NCBI GenBank assembly: GCA_045837725.1
Contig: JBEWZL010000298.1
Coordinates: 62,001-111,114, forward strand
Length of the DNA stretch: 49,114 bases
DNA from: Vermamoeba vermiformis
Lineage: Eukaryota
Direction of reading: 5' to 3'
Shown here: in pieces, positions 5,242-49,114 of the stretch
How the letters are laid out: the number at the start of each line of letters is the position of its first letter
Position numbering within the stretch: position 1 is the first letter of the stretch
Made by a program: the position numbers and the translations under genes
Notes under the pieces: model-generated
What the model was told of the DNA's origin: nothing
Databases searched by the model: none
Seen by the model: the letters and a program-made list of their open reading frames with translations, nothing else

Positions 5242-7570
5242 CTACTTTTCGGAGCTCTCCGTGCCCTCAGGTGCTGTCACATTCGGACCAATACCGCACA
5301 CGTCACTGTCGCAGAATTTGTCCGGCTGCGGCTTGGTGTTCACTGAATTCAGATTCAACGGCTGCAAATTGTCTACCAGGGCTTGGTACTCCTCCGCGGA
5401 GATCTCCTCGTAGGGCATTTGCGCGTAGACACCGTCAGAGCGCGGCAAGAACGAGACGCCCTTGAGCTGGTACTGGAAGTAGTCGAGTGCGTGCGTCAGT
5501 TGCGGCCCCTCGGGCTGCGGATCGAAGGTGATGGTGGCACTCACTTGATTGTCGGCCCAGTAGCGCTGCAAGAATGCTGCCTGTTTAAACATTGCGTTAG
5601 TTCACTGTCACGTGCCAAACACTTCACTGACGCACCATGCTGAGCTGTTCCCACATGCTGACTTGGTGCTGTGGCCGCACACCAGCGCCGACATCGACCG
5701 GGAAGGTGACCACGAGCGTGTTGTGCGGATCATCCACCGAGGCCTCAATCGCGTACCCAGCACTCTGCAGCACGGGCAACAGATCGCTGTGCTTGGACAC
5801 GCGCACACGCCGCTTGTAGTAGCGACTGATGGGCCAGTGCAGCCCTGGTGTGGCCCCCGCGAGGAGTGACACCGTGCCACTGGGCTTGACACTGGTGGTC
5901 TTGACTGAGCGCGGTATGGCCATCCACTCCGAGAACGACTGATCGTACTGCTGTATCGCACTGTAGCCCTGCGTGAGCCAGTGTTTCAGCGCACCAATGC
6001 CGCGCTTGGCAGTGAACTGTGCCACGCCGGACACGGAGCAGCCGATGCGTCTGTTGCGCAACATGACGCGATTGGACTCGGGCCAGTGCGTCTGACCGAG
6101 TGTGACGGTCTTGGCGTAGAGATAGGCGTACTTGAGCGTGCGCAGATAGTCCTCGAGTGCGTCGTGATTGAACGGGAAGGTCTCGACCAAGCAGCACAGC
6201 TCGTAGCTCTCCAGCGTCTGTTCCAGGCACGGATTGCCGCCCATCGCGCGCTTGTCCTTCCAATTCATCTCCAGCTCGTTCATGCGACCGTACGCGCGCA
6301 TGTTGTCCAGCCACGCAAAGCCAGGCTCACCGTTGAGCTGCACGCGCTGAGTGACGGGCGTGTAGTCCATGCCGAGCTCTGCAAACACGCTGTTGTTCGA
6401 GGTCCAGCCGTACTCCATGCGCTCAGGGTGCTTGGTGTAGTTCTTGAGGTCGAGATACTCCGCGTTGTCTGCGGGACCGAAGGCAATCTCTGCGGTCTGA
6501 CGCACATTGCCTGCGACCACACAGCGGCCAATGTGATTCATAATGTCCACAATGCCGCGCACACCGAGTGTGGTGCCGATGAGTGGCTGCAGCGTGGCGT
6601 GAATGGACTGGTGCAAGCGCTGCAGTGCCGCAGGACCACTCGCCACACCACCAAAGCCCTTGATCGGTGCACCCGCGGGTCTGATGCGCGAGTAGTCGAA
6701 CTGCACCGCTCTGTTGCCCTCCAAGTACACACTCAGCAAGCGACGCATCGAGTCCACCCACCCCTCGCGCGTGTCATCGATCACGTGCTCTTCTGCACTG
6801 CCCTCGCGCGGGGCCTTCACCGTCACTTTGCCAGCACCGCGCGTGTCAAATCCAACGCCCACGCCCAACATGCTCATGTCCATCAAGAACACGAAGGGCT
6901 TGGTCGGCTCGGCACTCAGCTCTTCGGTCGACACGAAGGCGCAGTTGTTCAGCGCTGCGTACGTGCCGCGCTCTTCGGTCAGCGGCGAGCCCATGGCCCA
7001 CAGTCCGCGTCCTGGCGGCAAGAACTTCATCTGCCATATGCGATCGTACATCTCTTGCGCGCTGCGCTGTGCACGACTCTGTTGCCAGCCCAAGCCGTGC
7101 TGCTCGATCCAGCGCCGTTGCATGGTGTAGGTGCCATTGACCACGCGCTCGACTGTCTCCCACCACTGCTCGTTCTGACCATCGCTCTTCACGCGACTGT
7201 ACGTGCGACGATAGACGAACTCGCCGAGACCATTGAAACCTGTCAAGGGTCAGGGGATCTGATCGCGATCTGGTGCTAGTAACGGAAATTTTATTGATCT
7301 ACGCTTGTTAAATTTAATTATTCGAAGAAATATATTTTAAGCGGATCGGAGACAGGCAAAATAATTAATTAACGTTGGGCGAAATTTTAATATGAACTTA
7401 CCAAATGGAGGCTTCTTATTCTTATATTTTTCAACAAATGACTTGCTTAATTTGAATTTTTTGGTTGTAGCTTCATCAGTACTGACGGATCTCACTACGA
7501 CAGTCCGATCGAAGATCCGCGATTTACTCCGCCGCACTAAGACTTGAAGCTGAAGACGACAAGCCAACAT
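5242..7570 (-). CDS. nrdJ: Class II (adenosylcobalamin-dependent) ribonucleoside-triphosphate reductase, 3 exons (7570-7402, 7239-5636, 5580-5242; 703 aa)
   Basis: YRRTYSR, PPGRGLW, NNCAF, thiyl-radical NPCLEQ, CCLVE, RRIG, VKPSGTVS and C-terminal FCDSDVC redox pair. The exon phases join in frame. Confidence 0.95.
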
Positions 7571-7645: not shown

Positions 7646-7665
7646 TCACGTGATCGATCACGTGA
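7646..7665. promoter_or_regulatory. Perfect 20-bp palindrome with two E-boxes, ~75 bp upstream of the RNR start codon
   Basis: TCACGTGATCGATCACGTGA read directly; a regulatory role is inferred from position only. Confidence 0.4.
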
Positions 7666-7750
7666 TCGGTAATATTTGCAGGTTGCAAGCACCCAGTAAA
7701 AAACCTTTAGATTCCTCTTACTTATTTTGCTGTCATTACAAGTGAAGGAC

Positions 7751-7805
7751 TCTAGTTAGTAGTAGTAGTACTACTCTACTACTGTACTCTACTCTAGTAG
7801 TAGAG
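7751..7805. repeat. TAG/CTA low-complexity tract with internal inverted repeats
   Basis: AGTAGTACTACT palindrome at 7764-7775; CTCTACTACT (7774-7783) is the reverse complement of AGTAGTAGAG (7796-7805). Confidence 0.75.
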
Positions 7806-7820
7806 TTTTGGTAACTGAAA

Positions 7821-7980
7821 TTGCGCGTTTCCATTTCGGTCTGACTGCTCTTCCGCGACGAACTTTAAAAATTACATAGGCGAACACGAACGCTTGGGTG
7901 GCTGCCAATTGAGTCCTAACGCATTTTTAGGTGGTTAATAATTTAGTGTTCAGCGATCTGCCCGTTTGTGGAACTCCGCA
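7821..7980 (-). repeat. ~160-bp dispersed fold-back element, copy B
   Basis: Its reverse complement aligns to 48124-48283 in three blocks (30/33, 36/39 and 30/31 identities by manual alignment). Confidence 0.9.
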
Positions 7981-8652
7981 AACGCGTCCAATCTCTGATG
8001 ATACAGAGAGTACGACACCGGAATGATTCACCTTCCTCTTTGCTTGTACGAAGGCAGATCCTTTCTTCATTGTGGCCCACTGTAATAAGTTTAAGACGAG
8101 CAATGGTTTGAGCTTTGGATCTGTACGCTTGAAAATCTTTTATTTCTGTACTATGTGTCCTGATTCAAGCCATCAATGGAAATCCATTCTGCAGTCACGT
8201 TTGTTCAGTGGTCCACTTTAACTATTTGAAGTTGGAGAAAAAAATAGTGAAACTCAAATGTTTCCCTTATGGTATACAGTAGTAGTAGTATTGCAGGCCC
8301 GCCAACGCCATTGGAGGTGCCTTGTGCATGTGGTAGGAATTTATCCTGTGTCTGAGATCTTGCAAGCATCTTCCCCCTCTTAGTAATCGACCAATACCCA
8401 CTTTCCATTAGCACCAGTGGCCCCAAGAAGCACGTTGTACTACTGTTAGTATTAGGCGGCTTTGGGCAACAGCTGGAGCTGAAAATTGCATTAGGCAAAC
8501 TGCTGGAAGCTGATATGGCACTGTTCTGCAAAGAACTTTGGCCCTTGACTTGTTTTTGCCATCATACTACTTCAACTTCGCCCATAGCAGTACTAGCTTA
8601 AATGCAGATACAAGAATGATCAAACTCGTAGCATGAGGGGATGTGAAACACA

Positions 8653-14949: not shown

Positions 14950-17431
14950 ATGTTCTCATCTGTGTTCAGACAAATCCAGCGAGGGGCTCAGCAGATCCAC
15001 CGATGTGTCGTGCCATCCGCCAAAAATGTTCAACCGAATATTAATTTATTTTCGGCTACATCAACTTGTCTTTATTCTACACAGGTAAATGATTATTTGC
15101 ATTTTTGGTTGTAAATTTATTATTTTTGGTGGATCTGGATGGTTAACGAAATACCATTTACAGAAAAAAAGTGAACGTTTGGCCAAAACTCGCAACATAG
15201 GAATTTCAGCGCATATTGATTCTGGCAAGACAACATTGACCGAACGAATTCTGTACTACACAGGAAGGATTCAAGAGATCCACGAAGTACGTTGTATCAA
15301 TAAGAAAGCATATTTACGATGCCTATAATTCTAATGCGACAATCGCATAGGTCAGAGGTACAGATGGAGTCGGAGCTAAGATGGACAGCATGGATCTCGA
15401 GCGCGAGAAAGGTATCACCATCAAGAGTGCCGCGACGTACGTGCGCTGGGGCGATCACCACATCAACATCATCGACACGCCGGGACACGTGGACTTCACC
15501 ATTGAAGTCGAGCGCTCGCTCAAGGTGTTGGACGGTGCCGTGCTGGTGCTGTGCGGTGTGAGTGGCGTGCAGTCGCAGACATTCACCGTGGACCGACAGA
15601 TGCGTCGCTACAAAGTGCCGCGCTTAGTGTTCATCAACAAGCTCGACAGACTCGGCGCTGATCCCTGGCGCGCGGTCTCGCAACTCCGCAGCAAACTCGG
15701 TCTGCACGCAGCAGCGGTGCAAGTGCCGATTGGCTTGGAGGGCAATCACAACGGTGTGGTGGATCTGGTGGAGATGCAAGCAGTGTACTTCCAGGGCATC
15801 AACGGACGCAATGTGGTGCGCGAACCCATCCCTGAGAACTTGCAGGACATTGTGGAGGAGAAGCGCCAGGCCCTGATTGAGACCCTGGGCGATGTGGACG
15901 AGGTAATTGGCGAGAAGTTGATCTCGGACATGGAGATCACGAACAGCGATGTCAAAGCCGCCATCAGACGCGGTGTGGTGAGCATGAAGTTCGTGCCCGT
16001 GTTCATGGGCTCAGCATTCAAGAACCGCGGTGTGCAGCTCTTGCTCGACGGTGTCTTGGCGTACTTGCCGGACCCGACTGAAGTGTAAGTTGTTTTTTTG
16101 ACACCTGTCATTGTCATCGTGGCGTGACACGTGTCACTCTTGAGGACTGCTGAACTGACACGTGTCACTACAGAGAGAACTTGGCGTTCATGAAAGAAGA
16201 CGAGACCAAGTCCTTCCCCGTGAATCAAGTGGACCCTTCACTGCCGCTCATTGCCTACGCCTTCAAGCTCGAAGAGAGCAAGTTTGGTCAGCTCACCTAC
16301 ATGCGCATCTACCAGGGCACACTGCGCAAGGGCAACTGGATCCGCAACGTAATGACAGACAAGAAGGTGAAAGTACCTCGTCTGGTGCGCATGCACAGCG
16401 AGGAGATGGAGGACGTGGACAAGCTGGAAGCAGGTGACATTTGCGCCATCTTTGGTGTGGACTGCTCGACAGGCACGACCTTCACCGATCAGAACGAGAC
16501 CAAGAACTACTTGATGAGCAGCATGCACGTGCCCGAGCCTGTCATGTCACTCGCCATCACCACCAAGTCGCGCGAACAGGCCAACAACTTCACCAAGGCG
16601 CTGCGTCGCTTCCAAAAAGAAGATCCGACCTTCCGCGTGACCAACGACAACGAGACGGGCGAGATTCTCATCAGTGGCATGGGTGAATTGCACCTCGAAA
16701 TCTACGTCGAGCGCATGCGTCGCGAGTACAAGGTCGATGCTAAAGTCGGCAAGCCGCAAGTGGCGTATCGCGAGACCATTCAGCGCAAGTCCGTGTTCGA
16801 GACACTGCACAAGAAGCAGAGCGGTGGTCAGGGTCAATATGCCAAGCTCATGGGCTACTTGGAGCCTATTGGTGATGAAGAGGGCATGGTCAAGGAGTTC
16901 GTTGACGCGACTATTGGTGGCACAGTGCCACCCAACTTGGTGCCCGCAGTGATCAAGGGCTACGAAGACTGTCTCGCACAGGGTCCGATGACTGGCTTCC
17001 CAGTGGAGCGAGTGCGCATGGTGATCACTGATGGCGCGTGGCATCCAGTGGACAGCACGGAGATTGCGTTCAGAACGTGCAGTCAAATGGCATTCAAGGA
17101 CGCATTCAAGAACGGCGATCCATCCATCTTGGAGCCGATCATGTCGATTGAACTCGTGGTGCCCAATGAGTTCCAAGGTGCGGTGGTCGGTCTGTTCAAT
17201 CGTCGCAAGGGTGTCATCACTGAATCGAGCACTGAGGGTGATATCGTCACTGTCTCGGGTGAAGTGCCGCTCAACAACATGTTCGGCTTCAGCACGGAAC
17301 TCAGATCCAACACGCAGGGCAAGGGCGAGTTCTCGATGGAGTACAAGCGACACGACTACGTACCGCGCGATCAGTTGCAGCAGTTGTTTGAGCAGTACAA
17401 GGATCACAAACGCGCTGCTCCTGCTCAGTAA
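14950..17431 (+). CDS. GFM1: Mitochondrial elongation factor G1, 4 exons
   Basis: Presequence-like exon 1, then [39 protein letters not shown] and [10 protein letters not shown]. Confidence 0.95.
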
Positions 17432-47100: not shown

Positions 47101-48032
47101 TCACGTGACTGCTGAAAACACGACTAACTCTCGAACAGAAATTGGTCACGTGACAATGGCCACGATCATTGCGCTCGTAGCATTCGTCACTTACGTCAAT
47201 TTCTTCCCCATTGCTCGTCGCGGTGGCAACTACTGGCTCGTGATTATGGTACGTTTGAATTGCCTAATTAGGAAACAACAGCGTGTCTAATGTAGTCGCA
47301 TGACAGTTCTTGTTGTTCGGCACCGTGTTTTTGCTAGTCTTTGCAAGTGTTTATCACGAGGCCTACACGAGCAATTCTCCGCTAGGTCTTTCAGTGAAAC
47401 ACCGCTTCTTAGCACTGCATCACCGCGTCTCCTCGCGCGATGTCAGCGAGGTCAAAGATCACAGCGAGGTCATTCTCTCCACGACTTTCCCAGTCAATCT
47501 CCGCTCGATCATTGAAAAGATCAACTTCACGGACTGTCACTTCCACGACAACGACCCCACTGAGTGTCGCATCGAGTCTGGACCACCAAACGCATTTATT
47601 CCTTTTTTGGGCATCAAGAATTCAACTCTCAACGGCACTTTGCACGATGTTATGATCACGGGCATCACACCTGGCTCCTTCGTGCACCTCTTTGAATTCC
47701 CAAATTTGGTAAGTACTTGTGACTACCCCGCGTAACGTCCTCTAACATTCCGTCCATAGAAACCGAGTATGGTGCAAGTGAACAATCAGACGATCGATCA
47801 AGAGGACGTGCTCGCGAGTTTTTACTATTTCGTCGCGACTGATTACCGCTGGACCTTGCGCATTCAATACAACGGCACTGAGCCTCTCATGCTGCGCTTG
47901 CACTCGCACTTCAACAGCCTCATACACAGTGCTGTAGTGGATACACTCGTAGAAAAGTTGCCAGATTGGGTCACTTTGGTCGGATCTGGCACTGGCCTCG
48001 TAGTGACGGAGACCAATTGGAGCTTTTCATAG
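44172..48032 (+). CDS. M28 family multi-pass membrane metallopeptidase homolog (ERMP1/Pff1-like), many exons
   Basis: TM anchor, VAHFDS, TDDATGVA, LFTNAQEFG, FLNIDS, SDF, GLD and QHTLDD, followed by several TM helices. Confidence 0.85.
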
Positions 48033-48123
48033 TGCAGCTGTTATTTATTTCGAAATTGTACAGTTTATATGCTAATAAACCTGCGGAACCTGTTTATAAT
48101 GATCTATCTTTACCGTTGCTAAA

Positions 48124-48283
48124 TGCGAAGTTCCACAAACGGTCTGATCGCTGAACCCGAAAAATTACACTATGCTAAAAGGCTTAGGACTCAATTGGTA
48201 GCCTCCCAAGCGTTGGTGTTCGTGCAATGAATTTTTCTGGTTCGTCGCGGAAGAGCAGCCAGACCGAAATTGGAAACGCACAA
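48124..48283 (+). repeat. ~160-bp dispersed fold-back element, copy A
   Basis: Homologous to 7821-7980 (minus). Nested inverted segments TGCG/CGCA, TTCCA/TGGAA, CGGTCTG/CAGACCG, GAACC/GGTTC and GAAAAATT/AATTTTTC. Confidence 0.9.
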
Positions 48284-48373
48284 ATAAGGAAATATTTCTT
48301 TGGTGTTCAACGAAAAGAGAAAAAACAATACGTAAGCGCTGAACACCACAATTTATCAAATAAGCTGTACGAA

Positions 48374-49114
48374 ATGGGACAAGCACAGAATATTGACGCG
48401 AATGCATACTATGATGCTCTAGACAAGTGCGATGTTGGTAATCACCGAAACTCACGTACAGATCTCGCTAATAATTTGACCAGATGCATTACAAAATTTA
48501 CTGAAAGGTGTTAAAGATCCTAAGCCATTCTTACATCAAGCTGTTGGTGATTCAACCCGGCTTCCAATTGAAATCGTAACTTACAGCAACTCGGCTTCAC
48601 CAGAGAAAATTGTAGCTGCTCTAAAGCTGTTAATTGATCACGGATTAGATCTAAATTTTACAAATGGTGGTACGCAAAAATAATCAAAGGAGATCTTAAT
48701 TAAATAAATACCTAATATTTTTCTAAACCAGCTCCCAATCCTCCCTTCTCGTTGATAGCAATCGATTCGTCACCAGAAGTAGTTAAATTTTTAATTGAAA
48801 AGGGCATGAGGTTCGATGGCGAGGCAAAGTACCCAGCAGCTGCGTGGTGCAATTACCGCGTTGCACATCTGATTCATAATACAGAACCCTGCTCTGCGAA
48901 TAAGTTCGAACAAAGCGAATATGTTTCTAATTACAAACACACGGAAGCGAAACTGAAGTTGGATCTATTCAACTTTATTTCGGTGGTGACGAGAAAAGCT
49001 TTTGTTAGATTGTTGGAAAAAAGATTGGTGTTGGAATACACTAAGGTTACTGGCGAGTATCCTGAACACAATTTAACATTGGAGTTGCCTACTTTGGATG
49101 ACAAGAAAGTGAAA
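48374..49114 (+). CDS. Ankyrin-repeat-like protein, runs off the window end
   Basis: Spliced MGQAQNIDANAYYDALDKCDVDALQNLL...LKLLIDHGLDLNF...EVVKFLIEKG; the last exon is open to 49114. Confidence 0.65.

Follow-up and report, generated by a model that had tools for sequence, protein, structure and literature searches.

Two stretches of the DNA analysed here, copy A at positions 48124–48281 (158 bp, forward strand) and copy B at 7823–7980 (reverse strand), are probably members of a many-copy family of short (~159 bp), non-coding, non-autonomous, MITE-like mobile elements in a eukaryotic nuclear genome. The window, by which we mean the whole stretch under analysis, comprises 49,114 nucleotides of Vermamoeba vermiformis. 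We have high confidence that the two copies belong to a many-copy mobile repeat and moderate confidence that the repeat is specifically a cut-and-paste element of the MITE type; its transposon class, DNA or retro-element, we infer from the copies at hand. The first-pass annotation had left three readings side by side, namely a structured noncoding RNA, a mobile promoter module and a MITE, and the last of these gains support from the number of copies, from their well-defined ends and from an allele of the copy A site that is empty and points to a short A-rich duplication. The element, at 159 bp between the family boundaries, lies below the size of ~800 bp up to which MITEs are counted as short; it is too small for a transposase and has no coding capacity. 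The family should be masked as a repeat and not annotated as an RNA gene, and it has little import beyond annotation.

Re-reading of the sequence placed both copies where they had been reported. In the pairwise comparison each extends over ~159 bp (48124–48282 on the forward strand and 7822–7980 on the reverse strand), and the boundary of copy A is ambiguous by up to 3–4 nt because of the flanking AAA/AAAT. We delimited copy A by its alignment with copy B, by the ends of other genomic copies and by a contig that joins 48102 to 48282, and copy B by alignment together with BLASTN and nhmmer. A MAFFT alignment of 48121–48286 (+) with 7818–7983 (−) had 167 columns, 37 of which differ, and its 160-column core contained 32 differences; BLASTN gave 82.8% identity over 163 nt (E 3e-38). 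No alignment was obtained outside the element, so the flanks of the two copies are unrelated, as the first-pass annotation had held.

Three near-identical blocks and two diverged AT-rich spacers of preserved length make up each copy. Block 1, the 5' terminal conserved block (48124–48156), contains the left half of a weak terminal inverted repeat, TGCG..TTCCA..CGGTCTG; block 2 is central (48183–48221) and was located by pattern search and by the A/B alignment; block 3, the 3' terminal conserved block (48239–48281), contains the right half of the inverted repeat. The hand counts made earlier hold in the alignment, with 30/33 for block 1, three substitutions and one indel over 39–40 positions for block 2, and 30/31 for block 3 across its first 31 nt from 48239. 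Spacer 1 (48157–48182) is of what we call the A type in copy A, and spacer 2 (48222–48238), in which AATTTTT is kept, indeed has 17 nt in both copies. Pattern matching with up to three mismatches gave exactly two occurrences of each block in the window, compared with 0.00–0.01 expected, and neither nhmmer nor BLASTN detected a third copy in the 49 kb, the next best match having an E value of 4.8. The differences between the copies are clustered according to a window-variance permutation test of mismatches per 10-nt window (p = 0.0006), while a second permutation test, based on the total length of the three longest runs of identity, was not significant (p = 0.17).

Evidence for further copies came from the contigs of DNA run X1, which carries the same organism label; matched to positions 47500–49100 at 80% likeness, they gave 90 contig pieces. 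The summed contig depth in four bins over 48094–48309 was 10,780, 18,900, 29,262 and 18,570, the highest value lying over block 3 (bin 48202–48255), as compared with 566–604 in the unique flanking bins; the element bins are thus 19–50 times higher, a ratio that can serve only as a rough proxy and not as the actual number of copies. The element was present in at least 14 distinct contigs, and 14 cover position 48157, all of them reading A where the window has C. Whole copies set in unlike flanks, with 10–18 substitutions and 7–17 gapped positions, were present in two separate contigs (322 nt and 1,196 nt). The matches to other copies start at 48121 (three contigs) or 48124 (four contigs) and stop at 48282 (four contigs) or 48286 (three contigs). 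Past these boundaries the letters agree with each other at only 0.53–0.57, which indicates that the flanks differ between copies. On these grounds we regard the element as one family of tens of copies, dispersed and sharply bounded.

It should be noted that X1 also contains, at roughly half the depth, sequence of a second haplotype or strain over 47699–49045, with variants at 47699 and 47727, a cluster at 48867–49045 and indels of 1–3 nt, which fits a heterozygous or mixed source.

A scan of metagenomes for more copies with the 19-nt core of block 3 returned 44 loci, all 44 of which match over only 19–38 nt in sequence of 54–75% G+C; these are chance matches in unrelated contigs, which are probably bacterial. 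Longer patterns of block 3 and block 2 had no occurrence in the prokaryote genome collection and none in the viral contigs.

The mobility of the family is indicated by the locus of copy A itself. An X1 contig passes from 48102 to 48282 with no element in between, and the 19 letters at its joint resemble 48101–48120 with small differences. The filled site in the window reads GCT, AAA, element, AAA, TAAGG, the putative target-site duplication consisting of the left AAA at 48121–48123 and the right AAA at 48282–48284, whereas in the empty-site contig the flank is followed by AAATAAGG, with a single AAA. This comparison, which uses one short contig whose shorter arm measures 30 nt, taken from a run that is possibly the window's own source and in which the filled junction was not seen, implies that the contig represents the copy A locus without the insertion and that the target duplication is AAA, at most 4 bp in length. 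The depth of the contig, 358.5 against 578.8 on the flank, or about half to two thirds of the latter, suggests a heterozygous or mixed filled/empty state. At copy B the same boundaries give flanks of GTT and AAT with no recognisable duplication, and this copy could be an older insertion or one with slightly different ends; the sites read for a duplication are these two, copy A and copy B. Presence and absence at 48124–48281 suggest recent movement of the family and provide a possible strain or haplotype marker.

The X1 contigs also bear on the meaning of the blocks. The first-pass annotation had taken block-wise conservation as a sign of selection; the block-wise pattern itself is real, but the argument for selection is weakened because the other copies fall into spacer subfamilies. 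One contig matches copy A only from 48184 on, and its preceding 30 letters match spacer 1 of copy B at 27/30 (counted by eye); another parts from copy A at 48222, its letters there being B-like. The A-type spacer 1 is spanned by many contigs, with a summed depth of 19,995 at 48168, of which 19,390 comes from contigs that have one C>A change at that position. In run X5, a contig of 151 nt agrees with 48218–48282, spacer 2 included, at all but one of 65 nt and then runs on into an unlike flank. Each of the two spacer types is thus conserved among several copies, and copies A and B represent different subfamilies, of which there are at least two, with common terminal and central blocks. Since A-type and B-type spacers both recur in other genomic copies, the spacers mark subfamilies and are not fast-decaying filler.

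By its content the window looks like eukaryotic nuclear DNA, with split open reading frames, a eukaryote-type gene complement and a 51-nt GT..AG intron at 47708–47758 that is spliced out in contigs from two runs. Pfam domains in the window include a class II (B12-dependent) ribonucleotide reductase (RNR), the alpha subunit of PheRS, an EF-G-like protein and an RRM protein, among others. Spliced transcript of the gene upstream of copy A was found in contigs of X5 and X9, which carry other organism labels, at 95–99% likeness over 47500–48069; a spliced contig of this gene ends near 48069, ~55 nt ahead of copy A. The X5 and X9 samples contain the window's organism or a close relative.

A 344-bp spacer, which extends from the stop codon of the upstream open reading frame at 48032 to an ATG at 48376, accommodates copy A; the copy ends 94 bp before that ATG, in line with the ~90 bp estimated earlier. 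The label "ankyrin-like" given to the downstream gene found no backing, as the one piece scanned (48806–49114, 103 aa) had no Pfam family at E ≤ 0.01. Copy A itself supplies an ATG at 48227, in frame and without a stop with ATG 48376 (open reading frame 48227–48514). If transcription starts upstream of ATG 48227, the filled allele could add a 50-residue N-terminal extension or an upstream start.

A distance of ~252 bp, in agreement with the ~250 bp given before, separates the end of copy B from the ATG at 7570, where a short open reading frame starts. The first-pass annotation assigned this ATG to a B12-dependent RNR; Pfam places the RNR-II domains on the next open reading frame, 5624–7123, and confirms none on the frame that starts at 7570, which would be exon 1 of the class II RNR gene. 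Since the Pfam match on 5624–7123 begins only at position 56 of the RNR_Alpha profile, the opening portion of that domain must be encoded upstream. This class II RNR is encoded on the reverse strand in eukaryotic surroundings with introns and is an unusual gene for a eukaryote; its closest protein-atlas clusters are mostly labelled as phage.

Several other motifs were recorded in the window. The 12-bp palindrome TGACAC[G/C]TGTCA occurs, at up to one mismatch, at 25 distinct sites in the 49 kb (46 strand matches), compared with 0.62 expected from shuffles (largest value 5); the sites include 70, 2445, 16099, 16125, 16156, 20365, 20495, 20833, 21515, 24216, 26106, 28469, 32111 and 35596, and no conservation extends past the 12 bases. 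Several of them lie in apparent short introns, beside GTAAGT/GTGAG or just before YAG, and three lie in an apparent ~88-nt intron at 16086–16173, ahead of the exon of the EF-G-like protein; the intron at 47708–47758, the sole one confirmed by spliced contigs, is devoid of the motif. The palindrome may be a very frequent site for a CACGTG-core factor or an intron-associated element. Among the excerpts returned by a literature search for it, only unrelated Ebola virus work was found. Near copy B, the unit TCACGTGATCGA is present twice in tandem at 7646–7668 (two CACGTG cores), between the copy and the putative RNR start codon, and a simple repeat of the CTACT/TACTACTC type with a palindromic stretch (…CTACTACTAGAGTAGAG…) occupies 7740–7810, directly downstream of the copy.

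The position of both window copies upstream of a gene and in its orientation, 94 bp and ~252 bp from the ATG, would fit a second role for the mobile element, as a promoter or regulatory module that travels with it and serves the downstream gene, a reading that is compatible with the MITE-like one and adds a function at the level of the host. The conservation of the central block between subfamilies, although it is not terminal, points the same way. We nevertheless consider such a function unlikely, since two of two copies is not statistics, the intergenic spacers are short (the stop at 48032 and the next ATG at 48376 are an example), so that any intergenic insertion lies upstream of something, and the downstream gene also occurs, in the empty allele, with no element before it. 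A narrower version, in which the central block at 48183–48221 would be a regulatory cargo delivered in fixed orientation upstream of genes, either to promote or start transcription there or to give rise to hairpin small RNAs, appears quite unlikely to us; its only hint is the two co-oriented gene-upstream copies, which short intergenic spacers explain equally well. If the central block were such a cargo, the filled and empty alleles at copy A would differ in the expression of the downstream gene, and with the insertion 94 bp before the start codon they form a natural pair for studying its effects on the expression of a neighbour.

The box-like motifs inside the element raise the question of a SINE or another retroposed small element, with an internal Pol III promoter and an RNA copied back by LINE machinery. 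By eye we note a B-box-like GGTTCGTCGCG (48238–48248, +) and a tRNA D-arm-like CTCAATTGGTAG ~50 nt upstream of it, and the weakness of the inverted termini would also suit an element of this kind. However, neither copy has a tRNA, 5S, 7SL or snRNA match at E ≤ 10, ARAGORN reported 0 tRNA-like genes, and the motifs are located 55–115 nt into the element and away from its 5' end. Both copies have a run of five T (48232–48236) between the two boxes, and such a run would stop Pol III. The element has no A-rich or simple-repeat tail of its own, the AAATAAGG that follows copy A being present in the empty site as well, and the duplication does not exceed 4 bp. A retroposed origin is, on this evidence, quite improbable.

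The weak inverted termini could also belong to a small DNA element of another kind that lacks true inverted ends, such as a derivative of a Helitron or Crypton, and in one rotation the insertion of copy A falls between A and T with no duplication; but in that rotation the ends are TG ... CAAA and not those of Helitrons, which are TC...CTRR, the 5' flank of copy B ends in T instead of A, and the outer helices are kept in both copies, all of which makes an origin of this type very unlikely. Two candidates were rejected from the sequence, Helitron-type ends, which do not fit, and a solo-LTR, which would need other ends and a longer duplication.

One argument for a multi-copy gene of an undescribed structured small RNA is the end-to-end fold of copy A, which the first-pass annotation had described and which is real: −49.7 kcal/mol, z −2.94, with none of 200 shuffles as good. 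The compensatory change of G:C to U:A noted earlier also exists, as a single pair at alignment columns 39/118. Copy B, however, folds at −32.3 kcal/mol (z +1.09), and 177 of 200 shuffles were at least as good. When the 49 pairs of copy A are projected on copy B, 31 are unchanged, four have a one-sided change, one is the compensatory pair and 13 are broken, among them the two pairs previously seen to be lost from the CGGTCTG helix. The covariation score of the two copies, 0.122 against 0.102 in shuffles, was reached by 250 of 500 shuffles, a test that with two sequences has low power. Helices 1, 2 and 4 are 100% paired in both copies and helix 3 is 86% paired, whereas the inner helices 5–7 are 75–85% paired, with 11 broken pairs; what is kept in both copies is thus only the outer helices, i.e., the inverted ends of the element.

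Searches against 4227 Rfam models gave no match at the gathering score in the whole window, and at E ≤ 10 around both copies nothing fell inside the element; two matches to miRNA models (E 1.3 and 1.4) outside it, at 48282–48352 on the reverse strand and 7773–7806 on the forward strand, were treated as chance. As for transcription, X5 contains RNA, as its spliced GT..AG joint shows, and its 151-nt contig with the 3' 65 nt of another copy could be counted in favour of a small RNA; it is also compatible with read-through in some transcript. RNA run X21, with the same species label, had 0 reads on the element or the following gene at 80% likeness among 12.97 million records, which weighs weakly against a small RNA; this silence means little, because 19 of the 23 reads on the window are less than 90% alike and the run comes from a divergent strain, and X21 was probably prepared as cDNA, with few small RNAs in it. 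With no Rfam match, a copy B fold and a covariation score at shuffle level, 13 of 49 pairs broken and a presence/absence polymorphism that better suits a mobile element, the RNA gene proposed in the first-pass annotation is very improbable. What that annotation had named as speaking against an RNA was found in the form of many copies, a short duplication at one site and no covariation, but not in the form of a match to a known Rfam family.

We return, then, to the MITE-like element. Comparison of TGCG..TTCCA..CGGTCTG with its complement over the terminal 26 nt gave a match equalled by 21 of 2000 shuffles for copy A and by 180 of 2000 for copy B, and a stricter local alignment found no terminal inverted match, picking up only an inner helix. 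We assign the element to no superfamily, since the terminal inverted repeats are weak, the AAA duplication is untypical and the 49-kb window contains no autonomous partner. In the mechanism that we propose, a transposase encoded elsewhere would recognise the terminal blocks, that is, the weak inverted repeat together with subterminal sequence, and the element would be cut and pasted into A/T-rich intergenic DNA with duplication of 2–4 bp of the target. The conserved blocks would then be what copies must retain for mobilisation, and the siting upstream of two unrelated genes would reflect the usual landing in short AT-rich intergenic spacers, with no shared function.

Compared with known systems, the element resembles the structured RNA families of Rfam in that copy A alone folds stably, and differs from them in that it has no match down to E ≤ 10 and the fold is not conserved in copy B. 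With tRNA-derived SINEs it shares a similar size and copy number and A- and B-box-like motifs visible by eye, and it is set apart from them by the missing tRNA-like match, the non-5' position of the motifs, the internal T5, the lack of a 3' tail and the duplication of at most 4 bp. Among MITEs (miniature inverted-repeat transposable elements), those of the Tourist/PIF-Harbinger type have 3-bp duplications (TWA) and those of the Stowaway/Tc1-mariner type have TA. In contrast to these classic types, the duplication at copy A is AAA and copy B shows none, and the terminal inverted repeat of the present element is interrupted and weak. In other respects it is like the MITEs: it is ~159 bp long, non-coding, AT-rich inside and capable of folding back, it is present in tens of gene-proximal intergenic copies that form subfamilies, and it shows presence/absence polymorphism, with AAA as a putative short target duplication at copy A.
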